Assembly (NCBI RefSeq): GCF_030384885.1
Contig: NZ_CP128614.1
Strand: one strand, 5' to 3'
Source: Escherichia coli
Lineage (GTDB): Bacteria > Pseudomonadota > Gammaproteobacteria > Enterobacterales > Enterobacteriaceae
Length of the DNA: 64,000 nt
In this document: positions 1 through 19,913 of the stretch, one piece after another
How the letters are laid out: every line of letters starts with the position of its first letter
Position numbering within the stretch: the stretch's first letter is position 1
Translations under genes and position numbers: made by a program
The notes under the pieces: model-generated
Told to the model about the DNA's origin: nothing
The model's database searches: none
The model's input: only the letters and a program-made list of their open reading frames with translations

Positions 1-187
1 TACAAAATACTGGATCAAGTGGAAGGAACGAAACCACCAAGAGATTAACCTTACCCGACATAGCAAAGTTCCAAAGAGGGAGTATCTGGGTTCTTACGCA
101 CCAAAAGTTGAGCTAATTGGTAATGCCAGAAAAGTAACGATCACTTGGCATCAGTTCAGCCCTTATAAAACAAGAGCGCCTAGTCAC

Positions 188-391
188 ATGTCAAAACGGG
201 TGCAACCAATGAAAAGTGGAAAATATTCTAAGAACTGTTTTGTAAACCATGCCAGCTGGGAATACGAAATGATTTCTGAAACGGAAGCATTGCTGGAGCC
301 TTACAGAGAAATGCTTGAGCTCTATCATTCAGCATATATCGAACTTGGACGAAAAATCCGTCAATACTCAAAAACTAAGGTGGCACAATGA
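188..391 (+). CDS. hypothetical small protein
   Basis: 67-aa ORF directly upstream of and co-directional with the transfer genes; no recognisable motif. Confidence 0.3.
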   Translation: MSKRVQPMKSGKYSKNCFVNHASWEYEMISETEALLEPYREMLELYHSAYIELGRKIRQYSKTKVAQ

Positions 392-1125
392 CCGACGCAA
401 TTATCACGGACAATGAGCGTATTAACATTGAACCAAAAGATGTAATGGTAAAAGGTTCAAATAAAAAGCAAGGCGTAAACGCTCAAACTTCTACTCAACG
501 TAGACCAGAGCACCAGGGTATGGCCAAAGTTATTATTAACCCCGGCACCCCAGATTTTAACCGGTTTTTAACTGCCAGAAATGGAGCAGTCATCAGAGGT
601 TTTGATGATGTGAGTATCGCTATTTCCTCTCTCTTTAAAACGGTTGATGCAGTTAAACATCCTGACCTTGTTCAGGCTATTCAGGATTGGTTCAACGAGC
701 TGCATGAAGAAAACAATAAGATGAAAGAAAATCTTGTTGCTTATATTAAGTCAATTGAGTTCGACAAGAATGACTCATTCATGTCATCAACTCAGTTTGT
801 ACCTTTCAGTTTTGAACCAGTACAACTCAACTTCAATAACCACAACACCATGAGGTTTTACAAGTACATCTTCGAGATGAACCAGCTCATGAACACAATG
901 TATGAGTACAACTCATTGGGTTTACTGGCTGTAAGCGACTATCCGGTTATGTCTCACAACATTATAAAGAGTATTAATTTATATGTTGAGAATGTGAAAA
1001 AGACTCTGAATGTTTCTCGCCGTAAGGATGGGCCATACAGTCCAGCAGAGTTCATCACCAAAGTAATGCAATATAAAAGTGTGCAGGCATACATTGCAGC
1101 CGAACTGTCAGGCAAACGTCGATAA
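388..1125 (+). CDS. conserved transfer-region protein, possible relaxosome accessory protein
   Basis: 245-aa ORF ending 4 bp before the relaxase ORF on the same strand; function not readable from sequence. Confidence 0.45.
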   Translation: MTDAIITDNERINIEPKDVMVKGSNKKQGVNAQTSTQRRPEHQGMAKVIINPGTPDFNRFLTARNGAVIRGFDDVSIAISSLFKTVDAVKHPDLVQAIQDWFNELHEENNKMKENLVAYIKSIEFDKNDSFMSSTQFVPFSFEPVQLNFNNHNTMRFYKYIFEMNQLMNTMYEYNSLGLLAVSDYPVMSHNIIKSINLYVENVKKTLNVSRRKDGPYSPAEFITKVMQYKSVQAYIAAELSGKRR

Positions 1126-1128
1126 GGT

Positions 1129-4100
1129 ATGATGATGAATTTCAGGGCGCTGTATTTATGTATTAAACGGATTTTGGGGATATTCTCATCTCAGGAGAAT
1201 GATGCAACCTCTGTAATGATTGAGGATATATCAAGCCTCTCTCCTTTTGCGCAGATTCTAGGAGATCAGAAGTACACTGTTCCTGATCATCCAAATCCAG
1301 AAGTCCTGAAATTCATCGAGTATCCAACTCGTCCGACGGGCATACAGACATTTAATGAACAGTCAATCCTGTCTCTGTATCGGGAAAAGCTGCACTCAAT
1401 TTCAATGATGTTAGCTATCAGCGATAGCGACATCAGGGACGATGCATATACATTTACTAATTTAGTATTAAAGCCCTTGGTTGAATATGTTCGCTGGATA
1501 CATCTTTTGCCAGCTTCCGAAAATCATCATCATAATGGTATTGGTGGGTTACTTTCTCACAGCCTGGAAGTGGCCATACTCTCTTTAAAAAATGCGCATC
1601 ACTCAGAACTGAGACCAATCGGATATCAAGATGAAGAAGTAGTCCGTAGAAAAGTATATCTCTATGCTGCGTTTATCTGTGGTTTAGTCCATGATGCCGG
1701 AAAGGTTTACGATCTCGATATTGTAAGCCTGAATTTAGCTAGTCCGATCATTTGGACGCCAAGCTCACAAAGTCTTCTTGACTGGGCACGTGAAAATGAC
1801 GTGGTTGAATACGAAATCCACTGGCGAAAGCGTATTCATAATCAACATAATATCTGGTCCAGCGTTTTCCTTGAGCGAATCCTAAACCCGGTATGTCTTG
1901 CATTTTTGGATCGGGTAAATAAAGAACGTGTTTATTCAAAAATGATCACCGCCCTAAACGTTTATACTGATGGGAATGACTTTTTGTCTAAATGCGTGAG
2001 GACCGCTGATTTCTATTCTACTGGTACAGACCTTAATGTTTTACGTGACCCTATCATGGGTCTGCGTTCTAATGATGCAGCAGCAAGGGCCATTAGTACC
2101 ATCAAGCACAACTTTACCAGTATCAATATCAACAATTACAATGCTAAGCCTATGCACATCATTATCGTAAATGGTGAGGTATACCTTAACGAGAACGCAT
2201 TCCTTGATTTTGTTCTCAATGATTTCGAATTACATAAATATAACTTCCCTCAGGGAGAGGCTGGTAAGACGGTATTGGTAGAATCCCTAGTTCAACGTGG
2301 TTACGTCGAGCCCTATGATGATGAGCGTGTCGTTCACTACTTCATTCCGGGTATCTATTCGGAAAACGAAATATCAAACATCTTTAGAAATGGGATAGGG
2401 AAACTAGAATTCTATAACCTTCTTAAGCTAAGGTGGATTGGTTTAATCTTTGATTCCTATAAAATCCCTGACTCAGTGCCGGGTCTTTTTAGCGTTAATG
2501 CCAATAAAGACTTTATTTACATTGACGAGCAAAAAACAGTTACTGAATACAGAAGACCAGTGCCCGGTCGGGACGCTATAACTAAAATTACTGATACTGT
2601 TGAGACGGCTGTTCTTAAGGTTAATGATTTAGGCCGCTCCACTGCCTCTATTGATGTTGATATACATTCTAAGAAAAATGAAGGCTCATCCGACGATTTT
2701 GAGAAGAAAGCCGAAAGTGATAATGAAATTGATAATGACACGCAGATAGTTAAATCTGAGGGTGAGGAAGCAGCTGATCCTGTCATTCCTGATATAGAAG
2801 AAAGTGAAGATGAATCGGCAAAGGACACGGAATCCCATGTCCTGGTCAACCAACTTCATGAACTCCTTTTAAGCGCTCCACTTTCCAATGACTATATAGT
2901 GTGTGTAGATGCTGTCCCCTACCTCAACATAGATGCCACTATGGCATTGCTGCCGGGATTAGATGAAAAAGCATTTAGTGAAGAGCCCTATTTCCAACTG
3001 ACATTCAGAGAAGGCTCTCTCGATGGAATGTGGATAGTAAGGGACATTGACGATCTGCGTTTAGTCCAGCTCGGCGATAACTGCGCCGGGTTCCAGCTCA
3101 CCTATCATGAGCCAAGAAGGCCAACAACTTTAAAGTCACTTTTCAATACTTCTATGTATCAGGCATTAGTGATTAATGATGAGTCTTCTGTTGAAAACTC
3201 TGCCCCACGTCCAAAGCAAACGCTTGAGCTGCCTCCCCCACGTGTAAATGCAGTCGAAGAACATTCTGGCGACGTGGAATATCATGGAACCGATAGTGCA
3301 TCCGCGACTGGTCCGCTGAAAACTGAGGCTGTGGAATATGAACATTATCAACATCTTTTTGAGGAAGAAGATGAAGAGCATGAGATCATTGATTATACCG
3401 ATTTCACACAGCTTAGTGTTTCTCGGCCAGAAGTCGGTAGTTGTGCAACAAGCTCTTCGGTCCATAATGAAAAGCTTCTCCCCGAGCCGTCAGAATTACC
3501 AGAACTTAACCGAGAACAGAACGCTGATCCCCAGGGTACGATTGAACGCTCTATGGATGTTTCTGTAGGACAAGAAAACTCAGAACCAGATACTGAGGGT
3601 AACTGCCCACCACCAGCTGAAGTTGTGTATTCCCAGACCGAAGCAGCCGCAACCAGTGTGATGGCAAGTGAAGAGCCCGCCTTACCTCCTGTACTTGAAG
3701 AATCAAATGGAGAGCATGCGCCCACAGACGCTAAGGGGCATCATCTTTCGCCAGCACTGGCCAGACTGTTCGCCCCAACAGCACCGGTAGAAAAACAAAA
3801 TCCCAAGCGCAACCGGAATAAATCATCGGACAAAGCAGAAGTACAAAAACCAGCATCACCTGTTTCTGGTCACAATCTGAACAGTAAAGTCTTTGCAACT
3901 ACTGAATCAGACCAAAATGGTGAATTCTCGCTTATAAGCGAAGGTGACGTTACAGAGCTTGAATTTGTAGAAATTGCGTCAGTACTGCATCAAATTCTGT
4001 CCAAAATGGAGGTGGCGTTTAAAAGAAAGCGCAAAAACAGATTTATGGTAAGTACTCCTAATACTCTCTATCTGACCCAATCTTGCGTGGAAAAATTTGG

Positions 4101-4281
4101 GTCGCAGTTAGAGGCTCAAGATCTTTTCAATAAGCTTCCTCAGTACCTCGTTAATTCTGGTGCTGTGATCAATACAAAATGCCATGCATTTAACATGCCT
4201 ACTTTGCTGGCCGCATCAGACCGGGCGAAAGTGGACATTGAACGAATTATCAATAACCTGAAAGAGGCTGGGAACCTATAA
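1129..4281 (+). CDS. traI: MobH-family (HD-domain) conjugative relaxase, TraI-like
   Basis: 1050-aa ORF; His cluster HHHNGIGGLLSHSLEVA and HD motif GLVHDAGK in the N-terminal part as in MobH relaxases; long acidic low-complexity C-terminal half; stop overlaps the next start (ATGA); true start may be an internal Met. Confidence 0.7.
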   Translation: MMMNFRALYLCIKRILGIFSSQENDATSVMIEDISSLSPFAQILGDQKYTVPDHPNPEVLKFIEYPTRPTGIQTFNEQSILSLYREKLHSISMMLAISDSDIRDDAYTFTNLVLKPLVEYVRWIHLLPASENHHHNGIGGLLSHSLEVAILSLKNAHHSELRPIGYQDEEVVRRKVYLYAAFICGLVHDAGKVYDLDIVSLNLASPIIWTPSSQSLLDWARENDVVEYEIHWRKRIHNQHNIWSSVFLERILNPVCLAFLDRVNKERVYSKMITALNVYTDGNDFLSKCVRTADFYSTGTDLNVLRDPIMGLRSNDAAARAISTIKHNFTSININNYNAKPMHIIIVNGEVYLNENAFLDFVLNDFELHKYNFPQGEAGKTVLVESLVQRGYVEPYDDERVVHYFIPGIYSENEISNIFRNGIGKLEFYNLLKLRWIGLIFDSYKIPDSVPGLFSVNANKDFIYIDEQKTVTEYRRPVPGRDAITKITDTVETAVLKVNDLGRSTASIDVDIHSKKNEGSSDDFEKKAESDNEIDNDTQIVKSEGEEAADPVIPDIEESEDESAKDTESHVLVNQLHELLLSAPLSNDYIVCVDAVPYLNIDATMALLPGLDEKAFSEEPYFQLTFREGSLDGMWIVRDIDDLRLVQLGDNCAGFQLTYHEPRRPTTLKSLFNTSMYQALVINDESSVENSAPRPKQTLELPPPRVNAVEEHSGDVEYHGTDSASATGPLKTEAVEYEHYQHLFEEEDEEHEIIDYTDFTQLSVSRPEVGSCATSSSVHNEKLLPEPSELPELNREQNADPQGTIERSMDVSVGQENSEPDTEGNCPPPAEVVYSQTEAAATSVMASEEPALPPVLEESNGEHAPTDAKGHHLSPALARLFAPTAPVEKQNPKRNRNKSSDKAEVQKPASPVSGHNLNSKVFATTESDQNGEFSLISEGDVTELEFVEIASVLHQILSKMEVAFKRKRKNRFMVSTPNTLYLTQSCVEKFGSQLEAQDLFNKLPQYLVNSGAVINTKCHAFNMPTLLAASDRAKVDIERIINNLKEAGNL

Positions 4282-6365
4282 TGTCAGATTCGAAGAGGAC
4301 TAACCTCCATGCACAAGAGAATTTTTATCGGCCTATTCTTGAGTATCGTAGTGCCTCAATACTTTTGATTTGTTCGGTTTCTATGCTTTATATGGGACTT
4401 TCTTCAGACGGACTGGACATCGCCCCAATAGTTCTGTTCACCTCAATATTGCTTTTTTTGCTGTGCCTTTATCGTTGCAAAACAGCAGCGCCATTCTTGA
4501 TGGCTCATTGGCGTGTATTCAAGCGACATTTCATGTTCGTTAGTCTTGATTCACTGCGTGTAATTAACAAAAGTAACTTTTTCTCCAATGAGCGAAAGTA
4601 TCGTCAACTGGTTCAGGATTATCAAAATAAAAATAAGGATATACCCGAGCGAAAGTCCTATTTTTGTGATGGGTTTGAGTGGGGCCCGGAACATGCGGAT
4701 CGGGCATATCAAATAGCTAACCTCTCCAGTGATAAACGTGAGATCGAGTTGCCATTCGTCTTCAACCCAATTAAGAGACATTTTGACGCAATGGCTCGTA
4801 AGATGGGCGGCAGCAATGCAATTTTTGCTGTGGAACGTAGGGAACCCATATTTGTAACTGAAGACAATTGGTTTGGTCATACTCTGATAACCGGAAACGT
4901 GGGTACCGGGAAAACGGTGCTACAGCGTTTACTAAGCATTAGCATGCTTCATCTTGGTCATGTTGTTGTTGTCATAGATCCAAAGAACGATGCAGAGTGG
5001 CGAGAATCTCTAATGGAAGAGGCTAAGACCCTCGGTCTTCCTTTCTATAAATTTCATCCTGGCCAGCCAGCATCTTCGGTCTGTATTGATGTCTGCAACA
5101 CCTATACTAATGTTTCTGACCTAACATCTCGTCTTTTGAGCTTGGTGACAGTTCCCGGTGAGGTTAACCCATTCGTTCAGTATGCCAAGGCTCTCGTTTC
5201 CAATGTGATTTCCGGGCTTTCTTACATAGAGAAAAAGCCTTCTATTTATCTGATTCACAAGAACATGAAAAGCCACATGTCTATTGTGAATCTTACAGTC
5301 AAGGTAATGGAGTCATGTTACGCGAGATATTATGGTTACGATGTCTGGACCGAAAAAGTTAAGTACGTCGCTAACGAAACCTTGCCGGTACGTTTCAAGC
5401 GTCTCGCTGAATGGTTTACGGCTCATTTCATGAATTACGAGGGGTCCGAACAAATAGACTGGTTAGATACTGTTTCCCAGCTTATTGATTACTCAATGTC
5501 CGACCCAGAGCATATGGCTAAAATGACCGCAGGTATTATGCCTGTTTTCGATATGCTCATTGAAAAACCTTTAAATGAGCTTTTATCTCCTAACCCGAAC
5601 TCAGTATCATCAAGAGAAATTGTAACAAGCGAAGGGATGTTCAGCACTGGCGGGGTGCTATACATTTCGCTTGATGGCCTTTCAAACCCCGATACAGCAG
5701 CTGCTATTTCTCAATTAATAATGTCAGATCTGACCTCCTGTGCCGGTAGTCGCTACAACGCTCAGGATGGTGATATGTCAGCTAATTCCAGGATAAGTAT
5801 TTTTGTTGATGAGGCACACTCAGCCATTAACAACCCTATGATTAACCTTCTGGCGCAGGGTCGTGCAGCGAAAATTGCACTGTTTATTTGCACCCAAACC
5901 ATCTCCGACTTTATTGCTGCGGCAAGTGTTGAAACTGCCAATCGAATTACGGGGCTCTGCAACAATTATATAAGCTTGCGAGTCAACGATACTCCTACTC
6001 AGACGCTTGTTGTAGAGAACTTTGGTAAGAGTGCGATAAGCACAAATATGGTCACTTATACGACCGGTTCAGAAACATCTTTGCCGCATAATAACTTCTC
6101 AGGTTCAATCTCAGAAAGAAAGCAGACAACTTTAGAAGAGAGTATTCCAAAGGATCTCTTGGGTCAGGTCCCTATGTTTCACATAGTTGCCAGGCTTCAA
6201 GATGGCAGGAAGGTTGTAGGCCAAATCCCTATTGCTGTTGCTGAGAAACAAATGAAGCCAAACACAACTCTGTCGGAAATGCTTTTCAAGAAGGCCGGAA
6301 AAGTTACTTTGCGTCAAAATCTCGATATCAAAAATCTTAATAAATTTCTAAGGAAGTTTCATTGA
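4281..6365 (+). CDS. traD: conjugative coupling protein (T4CP), TraD-like
   Basis: 694-aa ORF; N-terminal hydrophobic segments, Walker A GNVGTGKT and Walker B-like SIFVDEAH; translationally coupled to the relaxase gene. Confidence 0.8.
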   Translation: MSDSKRTNLHAQENFYRPILEYRSASILLICSVSMLYMGLSSDGLDIAPIVLFTSILLFLLCLYRCKTAAPFLMAHWRVFKRHFMFVSLDSLRVINKSNFFSNERKYRQLVQDYQNKNKDIPERKSYFCDGFEWGPEHADRAYQIANLSSDKREIELPFVFNPIKRHFDAMARKMGGSNAIFAVERREPIFVTEDNWFGHTLITGNVGTGKTVLQRLLSISMLHLGHVVVVIDPKNDAEWRESLMEEAKTLGLPFYKFHPGQPASSVCIDVCNTYTNVSDLTSRLLSLVTVPGEVNPFVQYAKALVSNVISGLSYIEKKPSIYLIHKNMKSHMSIVNLTVKVMESCYARYYGYDVWTEKVKYVANETLPVRFKRLAEWFTAHFMNYEGSEQIDWLDTVSQLIDYSMSDPEHMAKMTAGIMPVFDMLIEKPLNELLSPNPNSVSSREIVTSEGMFSTGGVLYISLDGLSNPDTAAAISQLIMSDLTSCAGSRYNAQDGDMSANSRISIFVDEAHSAINNPMINLLAQGRAAKIALFICTQTISDFIAAASVETANRITGLCNNYISLRVNDTPTQTLVVENFGKSAISTNMVTYTTGSETSLPHNNFSGSISERKQTTLEESIPKDLLGQVPMFHIVARLQDGRKVVGQIPIAVAEKQMKPNTTLSEMLFKKAGKVTLRQNLDIKNLNKFLRKFH

Positions 6366-7474
6366 TGGATGAAAAAATTGTCCTGACGCGCCAGCAAATT
6401 TTAAGCTCTGCACTAAAAGTCAGCAAATGTCGCTCGCTCGTAAAAAGGCGCTTTCAGTCTTTGGGTTTAAAGTACGCAGATTCTCAGGAAGTTCGAGATC
6501 GGCTAACTAAGATAGAAAAAAACGCGTTTCATCATTTGGGAAAATTTTGTCAGAGCAACGATATCGATTCCCTATTCTCCATGGCAAATACCCTGTCTGA
6601 GCTTTTCCTTTTAAAGGGAGAGTTGATCACGACTGATCCCTTTGGGGACCGTGAAACCAGCTACTGGTCGGTACCACAAGGTTCATGCCATGAATGGATT
6701 CAATCGCTGACCACCAGCGAAGGTCCTGAACGTAAATTCGTTAGTTTCCGTATTTCTTTCGATAACAATGACGAACGGTGTGATCTTGTAAAGAAGAATG
6801 CCCGTATGCTTGGTTGTTATCTTTTGCCTTATTTCGTCGATTTGACACGCACGGTGGGCGCATTCATTAATTTGCCAGGTAGTGTCTCTTTTAAACAAGT
6901 ACAGCGCATCAAACCCCAGATTCATCCAGAAACAACACATAGTCATATAGTTACTATTGAGGACTCTCCCTTTCTTTCTCGGTTAAAATTTAAAATCATT
7001 ACTGCCATAGATCGGCTTCCTGACCCTAATGGCCTTTATACAAACACCTTTAACAGCATTATTGACCGTGCACTGCTGACTCATCTCAAAACCGAACAGG
7101 AAAAAATAGATAGTCCAAGAGTCTGCAAAAATGTGATTTCGGCTTTTGCCGACTCAACTCTTTCTCTGCCGGTGTTTAACATCGGCCTAAACGAGCAGTA
7201 CAGATACTGGACGCCGTGGGGCATCAACTTTATAGAATTTTCCCGCCAGGCCGCAAAAGTAAGGACCGCTGTATTTGTTCCTGATGTGGGACAGATCGAG
7301 TGGAAAAGCGCAGAGCATAAAGAACTGGCGGAGTTAAGCCTCATCGACCAAATCATACCTAAACAGTACCACTGGCTCCTGGGTATCCCGACGATGTGGC
7401 GTAACAACTATTGCAATCACGATCAGAGGCTAGCTCTTTTTCGTGAATGGAGGGAAAGCAATGGCTGCGGATAA
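6362..7474 (+). CDS. hypothetical protein of the transfer module
   Basis: 370-aa ORF overlapping the traD stop by 4 bp; no motif recognised. Confidence 0.5.
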   Translation: MMDEKIVLTRQQILSSALKVSKCRSLVKRRFQSLGLKYADSQEVRDRLTKIEKNAFHHLGKFCQSNDIDSLFSMANTLSELFLLKGELITTDPFGDRETSYWSVPQGSCHEWIQSLTTSEGPERKFVSFRISFDNNDERCDLVKKNARMLGCYLLPYFVDLTRTVGAFINLPGSVSFKQVQRIKPQIHPETTHSHIVTIEDSPFLSRLKFKIITAIDRLPDPNGLYTNTFNSIIDRALLTHLKTEQEKIDSPRVCKNVISAFADSTLSLPVFNIGLNEQYRYWTPWGINFIEFSRQAAKVRTAVFVPDVGQIEWKSAEHKELAELSLIDQIIPKQYHWLLGIPTMWRNNYCNHDQRLALFREWRESNGCG

Positions 7475-8123
7475 TACAAGCAGAGCAGCAGTGCTCAGAA
7501 CAATGCTTTTTTTTGGCATGGTCATTTATTTTGGTTACAGCCTGGCTTTCCAGAATACTGAGGAGCTCAAATATCAGATTACTCAGGAGGTTAATGCAAG
7601 CCGGTCCATCATATCAAATGACCGTTGGAAGTCTGTTATTGCAAATAGTGAAGCGACTTTAAATTGGTTGGTACATGACTATAAGTTAATTGACTATCTG
7701 AATACTATTCTGATCCCTGACACCAAAAAACCAGCCAGAGGTATTAACATTGTTGCTGAAAAATTTACCTCTATTAATTACACTATGGCCAAAAACATAC
7801 CCCTCTTACTTTATCAGTCCATTTTCCGGTGGAACTTAATCCTGGGGTGGCTAATCGTTTTTCTGCCCTATCTATTTGCCATGCTAGCAGATGGAATGTA
7901 CCAGTGGAAATTGAAGAGGTACGTATTTGGTAAGGTTACAGTTCAGTTTTATCGTATTTGGTTTCGAGCATTTTGGGTGATCAGTGCTTTAACGATGGTC
8001 TACCTGGTCATGCCGAATATGTCACTATTTAACAATATCGCTCAACTTTTCCCACCAGTCGCTTTATTGATACTGGGAATTGCATTGAATCGCTTGTGGT
8101 CTAACTTTCAAAAACTCATGTAA
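7443..8123 (+). CDS. integral membrane protein
   Basis: 226-aa ORF with several long hydrophobic segments (e.g. LRTMLFFGMVIYFGYSLAF, LILGWLIVFLPYLFAML); overlaps the upstream gene. Confidence 0.5.
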   Translation: MNGGKAMAADNTSRAAVLRTMLFFGMVIYFGYSLAFQNTEELKYQITQEVNASRSIISNDRWKSVIANSEATLNWLVHDYKLIDYLNTILIPDTKKPARGINIVAEKFTSINYTMAKNIPLLLYQSIFRWNLILGWLIVFLPYLFAMLADGMYQWKLKRYVFGKVTVQFYRIWFRAFWVISALTMVYLVMPNMSLFNNIAQLFPPVALLILGIALNRLWSNFQKLM

Positions 8124-8133
8124 AGGTGGTCAG

Positions 8134-9315
8134 ATGTTAAGCAGTAAAAAAAGGAAGTCCCCTACAAATATCAAAGAATCGCTCAATGATAACGCTGACC
8201 GTTTTTATAAGATGTTTCGCATTCATACCACGGCAAAAGTTGCTATGTCGCTAATTGCCATGACCGCTGTAGGGTTTTCTTTCTACAATCTTTACGAACA
8301 ATGGCAGGACGCTGAAGGGAAGAAAGACCATATAGCTGTAATACGGATTTCTGGCGAGATGGGTACCGGCTCGGAAACGGGCGATGGAACAGTGATCGCA
8401 ACAGCTCTTGCCAAAGCTTACAATAATCCCCATGCCAAAGCAGTTATTATCGAGGCAGAGTCAGGTGGTGGTGGTCCCTCTGACGCCATCATTATTTACC
8501 GCCAGATAAACGCGCTTAAAAACCACCAGCCACAGATTGAACGCGTATCAGATGCCGGTTGCTCTCTTTCATCTGTAGCCGCTGACAAGAGTAACAAAAC
8601 CGGGAGCACAGAACGTGGCGATGAAGCACGGTCGAAGCAAAACTCCCTCGAAGTACTCTCCAGCGGTACCGGTCGTTTTTTCTCTGATATCGCAGACTCA
8701 TATAAACCAATCATCGTTAGTGTGAAAGGCATATGCGCATCCGCATGCTATTACGCGGTATCGCCCGCTGATGCAATTTATGCCGACAGTAATGCCCTGA
8801 TCGGTTCTATCGGTGTGCGTATGGACCACTGGAATCTGTCAGAGATCATGAGCACAGTAGGCGTCAAGAATGAGCCCCTTACGGCCGGTGAGTTCAAAGA
8901 TGCTCTTGACCCCTTCCACCCATTGTCCGATTCAACGAGGGAGTTCATGCAGAAGGAGATCCTGAACACGATGCATGAAAAATTTATAACTGATGTTGAA
9001 CTTGGACGGGGTAAAAAGCTTCTCTCGCGTCATGATGCCGATGCTGTTTCTCTCTATTCAGGCCGTGTATGGCCAACACCTCAGGCAGTTAAGTACGGCC
9101 TGGTGGATGGAGATCTTACGTCAGTAGAGATCCGTACACGTCTTTCAAAAATGTACTCCACTGACACGTTCAAAAACTACAATGAGCCTCATCGTAATCT
9201 CCGTTCTGCACTCGGCATGCTGATGAGCCTGTCTTCAAATATTGAGAGCCTTACCGGTACCACTACCCGCTTGGTAGAATCTGTTAATGCCACCAGCTAC
9301 CCCTCTGTGAGGTAA
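8134..9315 (+). CDS. S49-family (SppA-like) serine peptidase
   Basis: 393-aa ORF; N-terminal membrane anchor; segment GICASACYYAVSPADAIYADSNALIGSIGV resembles the signal-peptide-peptidase catalytic region. Confidence 0.55.
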   Translation: MLSSKKRKSPTNIKESLNDNADRFYKMFRIHTTAKVAMSLIAMTAVGFSFYNLYEQWQDAEGKKDHIAVIRISGEMGTGSETGDGTVIATALAKAYNNPHAKAVIIEAESGGGGPSDAIIIYRQINALKNHQPQIERVSDAGCSLSSVAADKSNKTGSTERGDEARSKQNSLEVLSSGTGRFFSDIADSYKPIIVSVKGICASACYYAVSPADAIYADSNALIGSIGVRMDHWNLSEIMSTVGVKNEPLTAGEFKDALDPFHPLSDSTREFMQKEILNTMHEKFITDVELGRGKKLLSRHDADAVSLYSGRVWPTPQAVKYGLVDGDLTSVEIRTRLSKMYSTDTFKNYNEPHRNLRSALGMLMSLSSNIESLTGTTTRLVESVNATSYPSVR

Positions 9316-9316
9316 C

Positions 9317-10048
9317 ATGGATGCTTTCAATCTGCTGTGGAGCATTACGGGGGTAGCTTTCATTATCCTTATTTTCGTCGTGTTGCTGTGTCTGTTGGGT
9401 TTTATGACCTCTGCCATAGCGGAACGGCGGACTGCAAAGGCAATTGAATCTGGGCTTCCTGAAGAAGCTCAGGGGCTACTTAGTGATCTCACCTTTCAGT
9501 TGTCGGCTCATAGCACTACTCAGGTTGATCACATTCTCGTAGCCCCACATGGTATATACGTCATAGAGCAGAAAAACTACGTAGGCAAGCTCTACGGTAC
9601 TCTGGAGGAAAGCCACTGGCGGAAATGGACTCAGTCCCGAACCCTCAAGTTGCAGAACCCGTTTAAGCAAAACCAGGGGCACATCAGGGCTATTCAGTCT
9701 GCTCTTAAGGCTAGAGAACTGGAATGTATCAATGTCGTCATCATAAACGGACGTTGTAAGTTTGATGGCATCAAGCCGGAATGGTTATGTATGGGGATGG
9801 ACGATTTTATCCATAAAGTCAAACAACGACGAGGGCTACGGTTGTTCACACCGGAGTCTGTTCAGCACATCTGTTCGGTGTTGAAGTCAACAAGGAAGTC
9901 GCCAGGGCTCTATACGGACCTTACTCATATTCACAACATAACGACAAAGTACAAAGCCCCGATGAAATTCGAGCAACGAGTAACATACATTCTGCTCAAC
10001 TTTATCCATTATCTGTGGGCAAGTCTGTTCACTAAGCAGAAGCCTTAG
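9317..10048 (+). CDS. NERD-domain protein (predicted nuclease-related)
   Basis: 243-aa ORF; N-terminal TM helix then HILVAPHGIYVIEQKNY...HWRKW, matching the NERD signature as recalled. Confidence 0.55.
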   Translation: MDAFNLLWSITGVAFIILIFVVLLCLLGFMTSAIAERRTAKAIESGLPEEAQGLLSDLTFQLSAHSTTQVDHILVAPHGIYVIEQKNYVGKLYGTLEESHWRKWTQSRTLKLQNPFKQNQGHIRAIQSALKARELECINVVIINGRCKFDGIKPEWLCMGMDDFIHKVKQRRGLRLFTPESVQHICSVLKSTRKSPGLYTDLTHIHNITTKYKAPMKFEQRVTYILLNFIHYLWASLFTKQKP

Positions 10049-10086
10049 CGCTCTATCATTGGTAAGGCTGTAAAATGTCTGCAAAA

Positions 10087-10120
10087 GGCCCCATCGGTAA
10101 ATTGTTGGGGCTTTTTCTTT
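10087..10120 (+). terminator. rho-independent terminator after the transfer operon
   Basis: GC stem GCCCCA...TGGGGC followed by TTTTTCTTT, about 40 bp after the NERD gene stop. Confidence 0.6.
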
Positions 10121-10334
10121 GCGTAGTTCTGATACGGTTTATCCTGTGGAGCATTATGGCCACCAGCCAGCTGGTGACTGGCCAACGCTTTGTATGACGT
10201 AGCCTACTCAGGGCAGGCTATTTTAGAGGGACCGATTTTTATCCGGGCTAATTTAGAAAGAGATAATTTGAACTTAGGCGGGCTGACCACCAGCAGAGAG
10301 GTAAATCACTAGCCGGTGATATTGACAGAAGTCG

Positions 10335-10697
10335 TCAGGGGTTTAACGCCGGAATATTTTGCCAGGCCTCCTGCAAGGTCTGCAAGACTTCTACAAGTGA
10401 TAGTGACGGCCACAGGACTGTTTCCGTCATTATCACTCCAGGTGGCTCGCACTCTACTGGTACCAGAATTAAAACAACACGAGTTCCTTTTACCTGGTAG
10501 GCAAGGTTTACTGCCGGTTGGCGGTAGGAGGCCAGTACACCCTCACCATATTGAGCAGGGTTACTTGCCCAGTTCCGCACCATTGCATACACCTGAGGCA
10601 TATACCGACTATCCAGATCCCCTTTGGGCCGTCTGAACGGCACGATTTCTTCTGAGCGGTAGGTGGTCGTTGTTGTATTGGTTGTCATCTTTGTCAC
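10335..10697 (-). CDS. hypothetical protein
   Basis: 120-aa ORF preceded by a strong RBS (GGGGAGGTG); Thr-rich N-terminus; likely start is the internal ATG. Confidence 0.4.
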   Translation of the reverse strand: MTKMTTNTTTTTYRSEEIVPFRRPKGDLDSRYMPQVYAMVRNWASNPAQYGEGVLASYRQPAVNLAYQVKGTRVVLILVPVECEPPGVIMTETVLWPSLSLVEVLQTLQEAWQNIPALNP

Positions 10698-10753
10698 CTC
10701 CCCTGTTCGTCCATTTAGAGTTTTAAGCTGCTTTACACATCACACTCAACTGA

Positions 10754-11038
10754 TTATTTAAGCTGGTCATCGTCTCTGGCCAGCATAGCCCAACCATTCG
10801 ACTGGTTTTCGCGGGAGTAAGGATTCATTTCAAAATAACTATCTACCGCGTCGCTGTCCGCAACAGAACTGTTGTTAGCTCTCTTTGAACCCTGAACCAC
10901 TACAGCATCAACCTCTGCGGCTTTCCCGTTGCGCTGTACCAGGATTTTAACCGTCTTGGGCTTACGTCTTGCGAGCAGTTTGTTGGCGATAAAAAGCACA
11001 ACAATCCAGGCCAAAAGCACGTATAAAAATTTATTCAT
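10754..11038 (-). CDS. small membrane-anchored protein
   Basis: 94-aa ORF with one N-terminal TM helix (FLYVLLAWIVVLFIANKLL) and a basic juxtamembrane patch; palindromic motif 164 bp upstream. Confidence 0.45.
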   Translation of the reverse strand: MNKFLYVLLAWIVVLFIANKLLARRKPKTVKILVQRNGKAAEVDAVVVQGSKRANNSSVADSDAVDSYFEMNPYSRENQSNGWAMLARDDDQLK

Positions 11039-11201
11039 AATGCCCTCCTTTGTATGTGATTATTATACCTGCTTCCATTGCAGGCCAAACAGGTTCGGTG
11101 TATGAAAAATAGACTTCTCTCCGGCGTATAGCAATCTACTTACTGATCTGTTTTCGTATCAAACTGTATGGCATAACCGAGGGGCGTACGTGGTGAGTCA
11201 G

Positions 11202-11212
11202 AAAGTTACTTT
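11202..11212. promoter_or_regulatory. palindromic motif AAAGTTACTTT, copy 1
   Basis: exact 11-bp palindrome, 164 bp upstream of the minus-strand gene starting at 11038. Confidence 0.55.
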
Positions 11213-11394
11213 TCCGTAATAGTTAATTTCAGATCCTTCTTCCAGTTACGCTTCAGTATAAAACCGATACCCTCTAATTCAGCATCCTTCACGTTTAATA
11301 CGCTTCACTTTAAGGCAGGGCTTTTCGGTTGATATGAATTCTTTTTCCGGTTGCTGGACATGGGTTTCATCCTGATAGTTAAAATTGCAGGCTA

Positions 11395-11697
11395 TCAGTC
11401 ACCACCACCACCTCCTCCTCCTCCTCCTCCACCGCCACCATCACAACCACCAGCTATGCTATTTTCACCATTACAATCACCTCCGAGGGGGTTCAAATGG
11501 CTGCTCCCCTGTAGATGGTGTCCTTGCCAGATCGAACCCGAACCAGCGCCTCCTGAGCGTCTTTGCTTGCCCTGAGGCAATTGTGCAGGCTCACCAGCAC
11601 CGGCGGTCCCAAAAATGTCCCGGGCAATTTTATAAAGAAGGTAAAAAGGTACGCCCAGCATCATAAAAAAGATTACTGAAAATATTACACGTTCCAT
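11395..11697 (-). CDS. small membrane protein with C-terminal poly-glycine tail
   Basis: 100-aa ORF; N-terminal TM helix then a Gly-rich tail ending GGCDGGGGGGGGGGGGGD, encoded by a (GGN)n / (CCT)6 triplet repeat; plus-strand ORFs over the same repeat read as poly-Pro or poly-His, so the coding strand is uncertain. Confidence 0.35.
   Translation of the reverse strand: MERVIFSVIFFMMLGVPFYLLYKIARDIFGTAGAGEPAQLPQGKQRRSGGAGSGSIWQGHHLQGSSHLNPLGGDCNGENSIAGGCDGGGGGGGGGGGGGD
11399..11440. repeat. triplet simple-sequence repeat, (CCA)3(CCT)6 on the + strand
   Basis: caccaccaccacctcctcctcctcctcctccaccgccacc read directly. Confidence 0.8.
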
Positions 11698-12129
11698 TGA
11701 TGATCTCCTGTCTTGTGAGAGACCAGTTATATCAGGGTGATTCAGTATTTCCGTTTAGAAAAGAGTACTAATTTGGCCCTGTTCGATCTTAATTTGCCAT
11801 CCGGGAAAAAGTCATAGGGATAGGCCTGCCAGAGTCAATAACTTCCAGTGATCTGGAGGAGACCCCGGCTCTCTGAGCCCTCATGGATGGTACGGCTTTA
11901 CCCCCTGTAAACAGATTCACGTTCCGCAGGACAAACATCGACTACTGACGTCTCATATTTGCTGACGCTAATCCGACGTCTCATTGCCGTCTGCTTGTTT
12001 TCTTTAAAGGGTGTATTAGACGAATATCAAATCGGAATGGTAGGGGATGTGTGGGCACCATGCCCGGCCCTCTTTGAGCATCTGAGAGATTGGAGACCTA
12101 GCCGGGTAAGATAGCTACTTTCTTACGGG

Positions 12130-12498
12130 TTACCCTTCAAATCCAAAGACGAAACGGACGCTGCCGTTCTCCACGTGGAGACGCTTTACTTCTTCGACAA
12201 ATTCCTGGATCACCTCTCCGGCGTTATCGGGTGGTATGGCTGACAAAATTTCTTCCGAAGTCAGCCATGAGTATGAATGTTCACCGAATAAATCATCATC
12301 TTCGGACGGTATATCATCAGGTAATCCGCGTAATGCGTGGATAAAAACTGCTGATGTGCTCGCCCTTTCACGATCTACATCAAATCCGAGCCAGGCAAAG
12401 TGGAGATATGATCGGTCCCCTTTATAATTGCTTGATAAATTAATCCATTTACCAGGCTTTTCTTCCCTTTGAAATCGCCAGCAGATATCAACGCCCAT
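12130..12498 (-). CDS. hypothetical protein
   Basis: 122-aa ORF, acidic, no motif recognised. Confidence 0.4.
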   Translation of the reverse strand: MGVDICWRFQREEKPGKWINLSSNYKGDRSYLHFAWLGFDVDRERASTSAVFIHALRGLPDDIPSEDDDLFGEHSYSWLTSEEILSAIPPDNAGEVIQEFVEEVKRLHVENGSVRFVFGFEG

Positions 12499-12662
12499 TA
12501 AGAAACTCCATTACTATCGTTCGTATGAGATAACTATCATTTCAGAATACTATGACTTCTTCCCGTATAGAACTAATCGCTCACGCCAACTGGGCGAAGC
12601 CAACCGGTTCCGCCACTTCGCTCATTGGTTTTTAGGCGTAAGCACTGAAGCCAGTCTCCATG

Positions 12663-13205
12663 CTAACTGGCGAGCCTGCGAAAGTCAGACTCGTTGTTAT
12701 AAAGCGGCATATCGTAAGCGGTGTCTGAAATGAACATGCGGATCTGCTCAAGCGTCATGCCACAATGAAAACGGTTTACGCTCACATTGGCCCGGGGGAA
12801 GTCAGCACAAAACGCATTCAAAACATTTTCATGGACAATGCCAATGTTGATCAACGCAGCTGGCCCGTTGTCACGGAAGGATACGACACGGAATCCCCCA
12901 TACCAGCCTGAATGGGAGAAAAATGAAAATGCGCCGGATGCCAGACCATTAGACAGGTCATAGCGCAATTTCCCGCACAGAGACTGGCTGTCTTTGCTGT
13001 ACACGCGATTAATGAAAATACCGGGACCAACTTCTACCGGCTGCTTGTTGCTTGCTAAACACGGAAAGCCCACCAGCGAAACCTCCCTTTCTCCTGACCA
13101 GTTTACCTGATACCCGGCAGTGAGAAAGTCCGTCAGTTCTACGCCAGAAAGAGCATTAATGGCCGCGATATCGGTAGTCAAAATATTTACGTTTTTCATA
13201 TTCAT
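12663..13205 (-). CDS. hypothetical protein
   Basis: 180-aa ORF; next gene downstream of 13267..13704 on the same strand. Confidence 0.45.
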   Translation of the reverse strand: MNMKNVNILTTDIAAINALSGVELTDFLTAGYQVNWSGEREVSLVGFPCLASNKQPVEVGPGIFINRVYSKDSQSLCGKLRYDLSNGLASGAFSFFSHSGWYGGFRVVSFRDNGPAALINIGIVHENVLNAFCADFPRANVSVNRFHCGMTLEQIRMFISDTAYDMPLYNNESDFRRLAS

Positions 13206-13266
13206 CTCATCTTTATTCTAAAGTGCGTTTTTTGTCTATCAGCCCGAGGATTGAAAATTTGAATAT

Positions 13267-13704
13267 TTAATGTGACAGATAAATACCTGTCACTTTTTCA
13301 AAAACAGCCTGTAATTGAATATCGAGAGAGTTCATTTTAAAATCCACCAGCTCAGCTTTATTATCGCAAACCAAATAAAAATAGGAGTCAAATGCGTCTG
13401 TATCTTCATCTTTAAAAATACGGAAGGAATTAATTTTATCATGCCCTTCAAATTCGGCATGAATACCATAGCGAACCGAGCCGTCATCGAACTGAACAAC
13501 CCGTCGTACAGAATTAATCCGGACGTACTGTTTTAAGGCCCTCGCGAAATCGGCATTTAACGCCAACGCTCGTAAGATTGAATCAGCGGTTTCATTCTGC
13601 TTTTTACGATCGTATTCAAATATCCCACAGCCGGTGTTACGAAAGACCGGCTGAAGAGCATTAACCAGGTTGAAGGAATCCACGTTTCTGTCGTTTCTGT
13701 ACAT
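13267..13704 (-). CDS. hypothetical protein
   Basis: 145-aa ORF. Confidence 0.45.
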   Translation of the reverse strand: MYRNDRNVDSFNLVNALQPVFRNTGCGIFEYDRKKQNETADSILRALALNADFARALKQYVRINSVRRVVQFDDGSVRYGIHAEFEGHDKINSFRIFKDEDTDAFDSYFYLVCDNKAELVDFKMNSLDIQLQAVFEKVTGIYLSH

Positions 13705-13748
13705 GAGATATCTCCTGCCCCTCCGCTATACGAAGGGGCTTGATAGGG

Positions 13749-14045
13749 TTACTGCCAGGCTGCGATCACTTCTTCGCACTGGAAATGAGATAAGCACTGC
13801 TGGAGTAGAAGAGCCAGCACCGCTGTGTTAGGGACGCGATTGTTACACCACGCGTTGAAAAGCAGCTGCCATGGACCGGCATAATACCCGGCCAGTTTCT
13901 TTTTTTGTTTAGCTGTACGGCAGCGGGAAATGGCCTGCTGATAAAGGCTTTCATTCTCATCACCAGCCCGTTTTTGCAGAGTGCGATAAATATACGAATA
14001 AAGACTGTCAGAACAGTTTGAAGCGTACGCCAGTTGTTTTTTCAT
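13749..14045 (-). CDS. hypothetical protein
   Basis: 98-aa ORF. Confidence 0.4.
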   Translation of the reverse strand: MKKQLAYASNCSDSLYSYIYRTLQKRAGDENESLYQQAISRCRTAKQKKKLAGYYAGPWQLLFNAWCNNRVPNTAVLALLLQQCLSHFQCEEVIAAWQ

Positions 14046-14165
14046 AATACCTCCTGTTTAGAAGTATTATATGTAAACAGCCTCAGCGGCTAATAACCCG
14101 TAGCAATATAATTTGCATTTTTTCTATTTCTGAAGACGCTTTTTAAATTAATATTTACTGAGTTA

Positions 14166-14444
14166 TCACAACTTATTATTCTTCCCGTCTGCTGTTTTAT
14201 TAATCCCCCAGTTAGTAATCACGCCAAGTCGGCGCAATTTTTCACGTTGTTCATAAATAAAAAAATCGCCAAGGCAGTCTTTTAAAACTTCACTATCCTG
14301 ATATTTTATTTTTTGAAGCATCCTCGCAACTATGGCGCGTTTCAGGAATATGGCTGCATCAGACTCAAGCATTTGTGAGGACTGTCTGACGGTCTCCTGC
14401 ATGTCGACGATACTGCTGAGCTTTCGTCTGACCACGCTTAGCAT
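14166..14444 (-). CDS. hypothetical protein
   Basis: 92-aa ORF. Confidence 0.4.
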   Translation of the reverse strand: MLSVVRRKLSSIVDMQETVRQSSQMLESDAAIFLKRAIVARMLQKIKYQDSEVLKDCLGDFFIYEQREKLRRLGVITNWGINKTADGKNNKL

Positions 14445-14628
14445 AGTGTCCGGGAACCGCTTAGCGGCTGAATGTAACCCGCAACAACGTTACGCATTGT
14501 TTTACTCACTGCAATTTTCCATTTAAGTCTGTTTGTTCCACCAGCTGCTAACATCAGCGTTATTCATCCTGAGGTTTCGCCCGCGATTGACAGATCAGAG
14601 GCAGCATGGATGAAATTGCCAGAGTAGA

Positions 14629-14910
14629 TCACTGCATACGCGAATAGTGGTTTGTATTCAGTTCTGCGTTTGCCTGCTTTTCCAGTGCTGTCATAACCCG
14701 GCGGAGCATCGCCAGAGCCTGAACAGGCGAGCTCCCAAACTGCACTTTCACTTCAGCCGTATCATGATCCTGAATCAGGTCGAGTATATTCACTTCGATC
14801 CCTGCCCCGTTTTCATCTTTTGCCGTGCACTGAATACTTACCCGGGTCACCGAATCCGTCAGGACTGGCAGTGGGTTAGTTTTGTCTACGTTGATAACAG
14901 CCTTCTTCAT
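14629..14910 (-). CDS. hypothetical protein
   Basis: 93-aa ORF directly downstream of the ParB-like gene. Confidence 0.45.
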   Translation of the reverse strand: MKKAVINVDKTNPLPVLTDSVTRVSIQCTAKDENGAGIEVNILDLIQDHDTAEVKVQFGSSPVQALAMLRRVMTALEKQANAELNTNHYSRMQ

Positions 14911-14975
14911 TGCCCTGTTTCCCCTTGTCCTGAAAAAGTTACCGACCCGTCCGGATGGAGGGGTCGGTCAGAAAA

Positions 14976-16160: not shown

Positions 16161-16250
16161 TTTTGTTCTCTTTTTTGGTTGGTTGTTTAACTGCGCTACA
16201 ACACAACAATACCAGGTTCGACATTTTTCCTAATAGGTTGCGGAGAAGAA

Positions 16251-16261
16251 AAAGTAACTTT
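16251..16261. promoter_or_regulatory. palindromic motif AAAGTAACTTT, copy 2
   Basis: 91 bp upstream of the ParB-like gene start. Confidence 0.55.
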
Positions 16262-16376
16262 TTTTAAAAATTTTCCTGAGGCAATACTACTCGATCCGTC
16301 CGTTTTAAATCTTCACAACAGTGGGCCGTTTTTACGTTTAAGCAAAATAACTGGTTCAGAAGGTGACTCAGAGAGA

Positions 16377-16387
16377 AAAGTTACTTT
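16377..16387. promoter_or_regulatory. palindromic motif AAAGTTACTTT, copy 3
   Basis: 217 bp upstream of the ParB-like gene start; extended context GAAAAGTTACTTTTCCGGTTG. Confidence 0.55.
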
Positions 16388-18206: not shown

Positions 18207-18302
18207 TCCAGCGACACCCCCTGCGGCTCTACTACCGGGCCGCAGTCTGCTCCTGCCCAGATGGTGCCAGTGGTGTAATGAATTTGTTTAATAAGGCTAA
18301 GT

Positions 18303-18905: not shown

Positions 18906-18958
18906 CAGATCACGGCAGCATTTATAACAGACGAACTCCAGAATAATTTAAAGCAACC

Positions 18959-19315: not shown

Positions 19316-19345
19316 ACGGCAGGTATCGCCTGTCATTTTACCCTT

Positions 19346-19564: not shown

Positions 19565-19573
19565 AGGGCTGCA

Positions 19574-19876: not shown

Positions 19877-19913
19877 TAAAAGAAAAAAGGGTTCCTCCGC
19901 TTTAGAGGAACCC
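19876..19913 (-). terminator. rho-independent terminator (minus-strand sense), probably the displaced hok terminator
   Basis: stem GGGTTCCTC...GAGGAACCC followed on the minus strand by a U-run (plus strand AAAAAA at 19883-19888); adjoins the IS186 insertion site. Confidence 0.5.

Follow-up and report, generated by a model that had tools for sequence, protein, structure and literature searches.

The closest described system is the Tra1 H operon of the IncHI1 plasmid R27, with the gene order traH-R0121-traI-traG-R0118-traJ-R0116-R0115, together with its R478-type counterpart in IncHI2. R0121, traI, and R0118 are named as H-operon genes in published papers, and traH is the same gene as R0122. 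TraH of R27 has been described as a MobI-like factor, and the relaxases of IncHI plasmids have been assigned to MOBH11 (bioRxiv 10.1101/2025.04.21.649884).

The Dtr regions of the MOBH12 systems, that is, IncC/IncA, SXT/R391, and Rts1 (IncT), also contain a MobI next to oriT, a MobH relaxase, a coupling protein of the SXT_TraD type, and a small gene that separates the coupling protein from DtrJ/TraJ (DUF4400), and they are likewise served by an F-type mating-pair apparatus. In Rts1, the DUF4400 gene is needed for transfer and not for mating-pair formation, and it is homologous to traJ of R27 (PMC10838148).

Gene Content and Order of the Operon

The window analyzed is a stretch of 64,000 nucleotides of Escherichia coli DNA (contig NZ_CP128614.1). 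Its positions 1-10048 carry eight tightly packed genes on the plus strand, and all gene junctions are either overlaps or gaps of no more than 10 nt. The genes, and the one that follows them, are:

1..391, plus strand: 3′ part of mobI/traH (R27 traH, R0122); open frame 2-391, 129 of 161 codons, the 5′ end being cut by the window edge
388..1125, plus strand: AcaB-like protein of 245 aa (R27 R0121), similar to AcaB in fold and profile
1129..4281, plus strand: traI, MobH (MOBH11) relaxase of 1050 aa (NF041494, PF07514); RefSeq start 1135
4281..6365, plus strand: traD (traG in R27), type IV coupling protein of 694 aa (TIGR03743, PF10412, PF12696)
6362..7474, plus strand: conserved 370-aa gene (R27 R0118); RefSeq start 6365
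7443..8123, plus strand: traJ/dtrJ, DUF4400 inner-membrane protein (PF14348); RefSeq start 7461
8134..9315, plus strand: S49 (SppA-like) serine peptidase of 393 aa (PF01343; presumed R27 R0116)
9317..10048, plus strand: NERD-domain protein of 243 aa (PF08378; presumed R27 R0115), the last gene of the operon
10335-10697, minus strand: convergent gene downstream of the operon

The genes after the NERD gene are located on the opposite strand. The same eight genes in the same order and orientation make up the H operon of R27 and its R478-type IncHI2 counterpart, and nothing material differs between them. The order is also identical in IncHI1A, IncHI1B, and a Buttiauxella-type relative. The equation of the S49 gene with R0116 and of the NERD gene with R0115 is presumed from gene order and counting. 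With high confidence, we assign the region to the Tra1 part of an IncHI2 conjugative plasmid as its Dtr (DNA transfer and replication) operon, equivalent to the R27 H operon from R0122 to R0115.

An HD-type relaxase, a coupling protein, an S49 peptidase, and a NERD protein had been named in the initial annotation. All four are located where it had put them and pass the profile searches, but the list was incomplete, as the genes at 388-1125, 6362-7474, and 7443-8123 (DUF4400) had been left unitemised. The module also does not start at 388, because positions 2-391 already belong to the 3′ part of mobI/traH. A promoter and terminator scan of positions 1-10800 performed no better than on shuffled sequence and gave no operon boundaries.

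Between IncHI2 and IncHI1, the proteins of the operon share 63-83% identity. The synonymous sites are saturated (pS about 0.8), and for this reason pN and pS are given instead of dN/dS. The pN values are 0.11 for traD, 0.17 for the S49 gene, 0.21 for traI, and 0.24 for the NERD gene, the last of which is under purifying selection.

MobI/TraH and the Origin of Transfer

The full mobI gene of an identical plasmid (L001, 8906-9391) matches PF19456 (MobI) with 79.5 bits and is annotated as MobI(A/C). By analogy, mobI/traH would be the factor which recognizes oriT and recruits the relaxase. An array of CATAGGGTCACTTTT repeats is located upstream of mobI/traH, and the same array is found in R27-type relatives, with the variant TGTGGCACTTTT of the repeat in one lineage (L017). 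The oriT is located outside the window, off its left edge, presumably in the intergenic region just to the left.

The MobH Relaxase

TraI matches the MobH model NF041494 with 255.6 bits (cut-off 200) and the Pfam family TraI_2 (PF07514) with 113.8 bits (E 1e-32; cut-off 23.9). The HD-type catalytic domain is N-terminal (about 60-410). It contains the HD signature LVHDAGK at 186-192 (H188, D189, and K192) and the histidine motif HHHNGIGGLLSHSLE at 133-147 (H134, H135, and H144). The key residues of both motifs are invariant across 10 aligned MobH relaxases, and the full set of residues invariant in the same 10 is Y65, H125, E131, H134, H135, H144, H188, D189, K192, H240, and D294. Garcillan-Barcia et al. 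reportedly gave in 2009 the MOBH motifs as L-x-H-D-x-G-K and H-x-x-x-G-G-L-x-x-H-S-L-E. The HD homology on which the earlier reading of this gene depended is therefore present, both in the MobH and TraI_2 profile matches and in the HD motif.

The long acidic tail ascribed to the relaxase was recovered in part. Residues 501-950 are acidic, with a net charge of about -59, but the stretch is not terminal, as the last 100 residues are basic. Compared with the MOBH12 relaxases of IncC/IncA, SXT/R391, and Rts1, those of IncHI form the MOBH11 sub-clade and have a dissimilar C-terminal domain. The relaxase class of MOBH2 and PFGI-1-pKLC102-ICEclc was tried and rejected (TIGR03760, 60.7 bits against a cut-off of 161.4), and with it falls the suggested likeness to the PAPI-1/pKLC102 class. 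A sequence search of the PDB with TraI returned no homologue.

Coupling Protein, the 370-aa Gene, and DtrJ/TraJ

TraD exceeds the cut-off of the SXT_TraD model by far (TIGR03743, 676.8 bits against 366), and it also matches PF10412 and PF12696. It has an N-terminal transmembrane segment (45-63), a Walker A motif GNVGTGKT (205-212), and an IFVDEA motif at 507. The 370-aa gene that follows has a shorter homologue (181-233 aa) at the same position in relatives outside IncHI. DtrJ/TraJ matches PF14348 (DUF4400) with an E value of 1.2e-12 and contains three hydrophobic segments (127-145, 172-190, and 195-213). Relatives of DtrJ/TraJ are essential partners of the relaxase and the coupling protein, and in published work TraJ is the essential DUF4400 protein.

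An AcaB Homologue within the Operon

The 245-aa protein is similar to AcaB (PDB 6N8B) in fold and in sequence profile, with an identity of only about 11%. Its residues 1-41 are disordered and are followed by a strand-helix-helix unit and then by a helical bundle. The unnamed gene after mobI/traH is a homologue of acaB. Matches of the protein to FlhB/SctU and JetA were weak and were set aside in favor of the far stronger match to AcaB.

AcaB of IncC is a transcriptional activator of conjugation, and the disordered N-terminal extension of 41 residues distinguishes the IncHI protein from it. The genomic positions also differ. In IncC, acaB is near traN, whereas the AcaB-like gene of IncHI is inside the Dtr operon by oriT, between mobI and traI. 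Control of conjugation in IncHI is known to involve TrhR/TrhY and HtdA, and there is no AcaCD homologue among the reported regulators. For IncHI, no target of the AcaCD type is known. The AcaB-like protein most likely binds DNA, as a putative regulator or accessory factor of the relaxosome.

The S49 Peptidase

The product of the seventh gene matches PF01343 with 99.2 bits (cut-off 24.9). It is not SppA proper, as it stays below the cut-offs of all SppA-type equivalogs (TIGR00706, 121.2 against 155.45 bits; TIGR00705, 96.1 against 311.45; SohB, 54.9 against 259). Similarly to SppA of Bacillus subtilis and E. coli, it has the S49 domain, the positions of the Ser/Lys dyad, and an N-terminal membrane anchor. 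Unlike SppA, it is plasmid-borne in a transfer operon and carries an IncHI-specific, low-complexity insert of 60 residues (about 131-188).

Ser203 is aligned with the nucleophile serine of SppA from B. subtilis, and K255 with the alanine of ...GAHAD..., which reportedly is the K199A substitution carried by PDB entry 3RST. Five lineages share S203, K255, and G112-G113-x-P115 without change. The N-terminus is basic, and a hydrophobic segment at about 34-55 remains below the threshold of the transmembrane scan. From hydropathy and charge, the protease domain is presumably periplasmic, and the protein is predicted to be a Ser/Lys protease that is anchored in the membrane and has its active site intact.

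The position of the gene is kept over long distances. Seven distant homologues were sampled (29-32% identity in alignments that cover most of the protein). In five of them, the S49 gene immediately follows DtrJ within an unchanged order of seven genes, and in the other two it does not adjoin DtrJ. Two distant plasmids also place it directly after DtrJ. This order occurs in distant plasmids of Vibrio, Shewanella, and Motilimonas and in metagenomic plasmid-like contigs. In several relatives, the S49 gene marks the junction to traL-traE-traK-traB. The S49 gene of IncC and pAQU-like plasmids belongs to another cluster, beside a gene of the DsbA family, a neighborhood which fits a role of the peptidase in envelope maturation.

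The S49 protein is as conserved as the coupling protein (against IncHI1B, 49% identity for S49, 47% for traD, and 48% for dtrJ). The initial annotation had suggested that both the S49 and the NERD protein may be element-specific accessories. For the S49 peptidase this does not hold, as the same order recurs in distant plasmids; judged from these neighborhoods, it is inherited with the transfer module well beyond IncHI. A literature search on the function of the S49, NERD, R0118-like, and AcaB-like genes, including peptidase roles in IncHI, MOBH, and IncC conjugation, found no functional study.

Instead of general peptide clearance, the peptidase could act specifically on a transfer protein, for example by trimming the precursor of the TrhA pilin or by processing periplasmic portions of either DtrJ or the coupling protein. 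The retained adjacency to dtrJ, the position at the traL-traE-traK-traB junction in several relatives, and a conservation equal to that of traD and dtrJ speak for such a substrate. In addition, mating-pair formation of Rts1 needs two dedicated peptidases, so MOBH1 systems do recruit extra proteases. However, IncC and pAQU-like plasmids keep the S49 gene away from the Dtr and pilin genes, and Rts1, with 32 conjugation genes, has no reported requirement for an S49 peptidase. We consider a dedicated transfer substrate possible, though rather doubtful.

The NERD Protein

The last gene encodes a protein which matches PF08378 with 77.8 bits (cut-off 22.1). It carries a transmembrane helix near its N-terminus (12-30) as well as a nuclease-like motif, D71 ... 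E84-x-K86. D71 is invariant in alignment A2, and E84-Q85-K86 is kept in the three NERD proteins of IncHI. A sequence search of the PDB with this protein found no homologue.

The NERD gene is present in IncHI1, IncHI2, IncHI1B, and the Buttiauxella-type relative and absent from the other relatives compared. Its orthologues at the same position share 63% (IncHI1) and 32-35% (IncHI1B) identity. The operons of IncC/IncA, SXT/R391, and Rts1 are all devoid of a NERD gene. A hypothetical gene after the S49 gene of a Vibrio plasmid was considered as a NERD candidate and rejected (21% identity and no conserved motif). Across the relatives compared, NERD alone is lineage-specific, being confined to the IncHI lineage.

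In PADLOC, the NERD protein obtained only matches of 20-24 bits, to the NERD part of PglW and MkoA, and the S49 protein had no match. These results bear on another explanation, according to which the S49 and NERD genes are a passenger pair with a role in defence, exclusion, or anti-defence, riding at the end of the operon and unrelated to conjugation. NERD domains do occur at the N-termini of defence proteins, and the protein gives weak matches to the PglW, MADS6, and MkoA models, but these matches extend over no more than the NERD domain of far larger proteins and are far below the cut-offs. In favor of the passenger reading, the NERD relatives outside IncHI are not located in transfer operons, and natural IS insertions exist in the S49 gene.

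Both genes are also reportedly not among the R27 essentials. Lawley et al. are said to have mutagenised in 2002 14 ORFs of R27 Tra1, of which 9 were essential, with traH, traI, traG, and traJ on the side of the H operon. From this mutagenesis, and from the lack of tra names for the S49 and NERD genes, both appear dispensable. On the contrary, the S49 gene stays directly after dtrJ in lineages of about 30% identity which lack NERD, so the two are no obligate pair, and both are packed tightly against the transfer genes. A passenger pair is therefore an unlikely explanation.

Proposed Mechanism

The steps proposed for the Dtr operon are inferred by homology with R27, IncC, SXT, and Rts1. MobI/TraH would recognize oriT to the left of the window and recruit the MOBH11 relaxase TraI. 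Using a tyrosine and its HD-type metal center, TraI would nick oriT. The complex of relaxase and DNA would then be passed on to the trh-encoded type IV secretion system, which is of the F type, by the coupling ATPase TraD/TraG and the membrane protein DtrJ/TraJ acting together. The S49 peptidase may contribute envelope maturation or peptide clearance for the transfer apparatus, and the host proteases SppA and SohB probably back it up. The IncHI-specific, membrane-tethered, nuclease-like NERD protein probably acts on DNA at the membrane and would not be required for transfer.

A further proposal is put forward only tentatively. The S49 peptidase may be an unrecognised component of the MOBH1 Dtr system, which either cooperates at the inner membrane with the coupling protein and DtrJ or takes part in pilus maturation, and the AcaB-like protein may be an unnamed relaxosome or regulatory factor which reads the oriT repeats. 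If so, two proteins would be missing from the accepted list of components for IncHI conjugation and related systems, both hidden so far by host-protease redundancy or by assay conditions.

Among the main vehicles of mcr-1, mcr-9, and carbapenemase genes are the IncHI2 plasmids, whose transfer this operon starts. The sequence itself adds nothing new. Its by-products are at the level of annotation, namely the AcaB homologue, the S49 peptidase that travels with the module, and the NERD gene found only in IncHI, and all three are targets for dissecting or inhibiting IncHI conjugation.

Replicon Context of the Operon

The operon is already known and ordinary, being near-unchanged in about a thousand database plasmids. 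In PLSDB, 985 plasmid records have a DNA identity of at least 99% to the transfer operon, and the matches whose typing was consulted are IncHI2. Over window positions 1-19500, the identity to the circular IncHI2 plasmid p14EC029b, typed as IncHI2A, MOBH, and MPF_F, is 99.99%. The blocks 1-19971, 21309-33053, and 53415-64000 of the window are collinear with this plasmid, in which repHI2 is located about 10 kb past the right end of the window; repHI2 is absent within the 64 kb themselves. In complete genomes of E. coli, the operon is plasmid-borne at 244 out of 248 places.

The region had been likened to the transfer region of a MobH-type ICE. The MobH relaxase and the gene order of MOBH1 transfer modules bear out part of this description, but the operon is a plasmid module of the MOBH1 group and no ICE, because its counterpart is the Tra1 H operon of plasmids of the R27 type. 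Membership in an integrative conjugative element such as those of the SXT/R391 or PAPI-1/pKLC102/SPI-7 families is highly improbable and effectively refuted: the coupling protein passes the SXT_TraD model, the relaxase is MobH as in SXT/R391, the order traI-traD-orf-traJ is common to SXT and Rts1, and 4 of the 248 E. coli places are chromosomal, but the collinear plasmid with its repHI2 and the other 244 places stand against it, as do the failure of the PFGI-1-class relaxase model given above, the failure of the TOL-type TraD model (166 against 647 bits), and the location of the single tyrosine recombinase seen in the window, which is part of a separate insert.

This unrelated insert of 20 kb (33054-53414) carries a CBASS system. 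The copy studied is located on a rarer variant of IncHI2, with the CBASS-bearing insert placed elsewhere in the backbone.

Organization and replicon of the operon

In the ORF map, positions 1-10048 of the window hold a run of plus-strand genes whose ends overlap or almost touch, and beyond 10048 the neighboring genes lie on the opposite strand. The four components named in the initial annotation (relaxase, coupling protein, S49 peptidase and NERD protein) are real and correctly located, and profile searches uphold each of them.

Genes of the operon (coordinates, strand, description)
188/2-391, +, mobI ORF at the left edge, matching MobI
388-1125, +, 245-aa gene (ORF map)
1129-4281, +, MobH relaxase (traI), 1050 aa; NCBIfam MobH model 255.6 bits, cut-off 200; Pfam TraI_2
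4281-6365, +, coupling protein (traD), 694 aa; SXT_TraD model 676.8 bits, cut-off 366
6362-7474, +, unnamed R0118-type gene (ORF map)
7443-8123, +, DUF4400 protein, now named DtrJ-like, 226 aa (profile search)
8134-9315, +, S49 peptidase, 393 aa; PF01343, 99.2 bits
9317-10048, +, NERD-domain protein, 243 aa; PF08378, 77.8 bits

The relaxase is indeed of the HD type, since LVHDAGK and the histidine-rich GGLLSHSLE are both present, and these motifs are invariant across ten aligned MobH relaxases of related loci. Its supposed long acidic tail exists as an acidic stretch (residues 501-950, net charge about -59) but is not terminal, the final 100 residues being basic.

The region had been likened to the transfer regions of ICEs, a comparison that is not borne out. 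A megablast search of window 1-10500 matched 1230 plasmids in PLSDB, with an identity of >=99% for 985; these are mostly conjugative plasmids of 220-300 kb from Escherichia, Salmonella and Enterobacter. Plasmid p14EC029b (typed IncHI2A, MOBH, MPF_F) is 99.99% identical to window 1-19500 and collinear with its later blocks, with repHI2 located further on. Among complete E. coli genomes the region occurs in 243 out of 5426, at 244 plasmid and 4 chromosomal places. Window 2-391 is an open frame corresponding to mobI, which is annotated in p14EC029b as 161 aa, with the first 32 codons outside the window (full-length protein matching PF19456, 79.5 bits). Left of it in that plasmid are divergent trh genes (TrhH, a TraG_N protein and a thioredoxin-like protein). 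Based on this identity and collinearity, the plasmid locations in E. coli and the mobI and trh neighbors, the region is assigned to Tra1 of an IncHI2 plasmid and not to an ICE; an ICE origin of the module is extremely improbable. This is the usual Dtr operon of IncHI2 plasmids, sequenced many times over, and is therefore already known.

A DDE_Tnp_1 transposase gene (20142-21260, minus strand) lies within window 19972-21308, where p14EC029b has IS150, and thus one backbone position holds differing insertion sequences. Some otherwise identical IncHI2 plasmids (NZ_CP119735.1/NZ_CP119741.1; database matches H1, H2, H38 and H174) have the S49 gene split by IS5, and others carry IS66, IS100, ISApl1 or ISVsa5 elsewhere in the region.

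The oriT region and correspondence with R27

No oriT is possible inside the window upstream of 388, because the DNA there is mobI coding sequence. The trhR-mobI intergenic region, to which the oriT of R27 has been mapped, contains in p14EC029b (locus L001, 8471-8640) six CATAGGGTCACTTTT 15-mers of alternating orientation, a count reached in 0 of 100 shuffles. Segment 8471-8640 is some 360-530 bp, and the array about 380-500 bp, outside the left end of the window. The same motif is found in IncHI1 (locus L002, 2472-2642), and in a related lineage (locus L017, 464-683) TGTGGCACTTTT arrays replace it.

Tra1 of R27 comprises three operons (R, F and H); traH is R0122, and R0121, traI and R0118 belong to the H operon, with R0121 induced 8.3-fold at 25 C (PMC7366339). 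The relaxases of IncHI1 and IncHI2 form sub-clade MOBH11, and TraH is the MobI-like factor of R27 (10.1101/2025.04.21.649884, a 2026 preprint). In a deletion study of Rts1, the DUF4400 protein, which aligned with TraJ of R27, was essential for DNA transfer and dispensable for mating-pair formation (PMC10838148). R0115, R0116 and R0118 also appear among the Tra1 loci that a comparative preprint reports as conserved (10.1101/334409). By gene order, counting down from R0122, R0116 would correspond to the S49 gene and R0115 to the NERD gene. Lawley et al. in 2002 reportedly found 9 of the 14 Tra1 ORFs of R27 essential, those on this side of oriT being traH, traI, traG and traJ.

Distribution of the S49 and NERD genes

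All eight genes, in unchanged order, are present in an IncHI1A plasmid (S49 72-73% and NERD 63% identical), an IncHI1B Klebsiella plasmid (46-49% and 32-35%, respectively) and a Buttiauxella-type relative. Outside IncHI, the relatives compared keep the S49 gene and lack the NERD gene. For instance, Vibrio gigantis p1 and Shewanella pSA70-3 show a gene at the MobI position, an AcaB-like gene, traI, traD, a small ORF, DUF4400 and S49. Seven distant S49 homologues were sampled from the database search (29-32% identical in alignments that cover most of the protein); five are located in the order MobI-ORF-TraI_2-T4CP-(ORF)-DtrJ-S49, usually followed by traL-traE-traK-traB, and the remaining two elsewhere on plasmid-like contigs. 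None of the non-IncHI NERD relatives examined lies in a transfer operon. Since S49 is kept and NERD absent beyond IncHI, gene content marks S49 as a widely conserved companion of the module and NERD as an addition of the IncHI lineage. The suggestion that both genes are element-specific thus holds for NERD, confined to IncHI, and fails for S49, which follows DUF4400/DtrJ in distant plasmids without NERD.

In IncC and pAQU-like plasmids an S49 gene of 26-40% identity is placed in a different cluster, directly followed by a DsbA-family gene (L005 6935-8770 and L007 7791-9641, respectively). A thermonuclease-family gene is located a few genes past this pair, whereas the IncHI S49 is paired with the nuclease-like NERD gene instead. 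A predicted protein of 509 aa (P0001) joins DUF4400 to S49 and matches the window proteins at 100% identity. Its source is one Logan contig of 1.9 kb; a frameshift or a misassembly across the 10 nt that separate the two genes is the probable cause.

Protein features, selection and proposed roles

In an alignment of five lineages, S203, K255 and G112-G113-x-P115 of the S49 protein are invariant. The nucleophile serine of Bacillus subtilis SppA (3RST) aligns with S203, and K255 is opposite an alanine, which we take to be the K199A substitution of that crystal form. A hydrophobic stretch follows the strongly basic N-terminus, which suggests anchoring like that of SppA, with a protease that would lie outside the cytoplasm. 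Scores fall under the SppA and SohB equivalog cut-offs, and a low-complexity insert of 60 residues is found in the IncHI proteins but not in the others aligned. In the NERD protein a strong N-terminal transmembrane helix precedes ERRTAK, and D71 and E84-x-K86 are present.

The comparison of IncHI2 with IncHI1 is saturated at synonymous sites (pS about 0.8); its pN values are 0.11 (traD), 0.12 (dtrJ), 0.17 (S49), 0.21 (traI) and 0.24 (NERD). Relative to IncHI1B, S49 shows the same degree of conservation as traD and dtrJ. Judging from these divergences, the S49 and NERD genes are therefore both kept by selection.

For homologues, the literature has established MobI/TraH-dependent recruitment of the MobH relaxase to oriT, coupling via TraD/TraG and an essential role of DtrJ/TraJ. 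The AcaB-like protein would bind DNA, as a regulator or a relaxosome accessory factor. The S49 protease may act for the transfer apparatus in envelope maturation or in the clearance of peptides, with host enzymes as a probable backup; plasmid thioredoxins are reported to be redundant with host DsbC in a comparable way. A specific role in processing pilin or the T4CP is doubtful. The NERD protein would have DNA at the membrane as its target and would not be needed for transfer, and it is improbable that S49 and NERD are a passenger or defence pair.

The AcaB-like gene

Positional orthologues of each of the two unnamed genes were aligned and structures predicted. The model of the 245-aa protein (pLDDT 75) has a disordered N-terminus, a strand with two helices and a helical bundle, and its family profile finds AcaB by sequence (E 1.1e-8). 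In IncC, acaB is near traN and activates acaDC (PMC8373056); the homologue here lies between mobI and traI. A literature search for AcaB together with IncHI found no paper taking this link as its subject. What the region still has to offer is the homology of its R0121-type gene to AcaB and the conserved linkage between S49 and the block of relaxase, coupling protein and DtrJ.

A 20.4-kb insert

Window 33054-53414 is a 20.4-kb segment missing from the collinear IncHI2 plasmid, whose PAPS-reductase-family gene it interrupts. Among its genes is a type II CBASS operon, all of it on the minus strand, and the segment looks like an integrative defence island.

Features of the insert (coordinates, strand where given, description)
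33419-34525, HEC-08/DUF3644 candidate (PADLOC)
36583-37053, -, cap3 JAB, CBASS operon
37040-38809, -, cap2 E1/E2, CBASS operon
38809-40110, -, DncV-like cyclase, CBASS operon
40110-41180, -, capV patatin, CBASS operon
44204-45598, ResIII/DEAD helicase
46430-51679, three large tandem ORFs, the last a tyrosine recombinase

The whole insert is present in just one of 72,556 PLSDB plasmids (NZ_CP053569.1, 99.4%).
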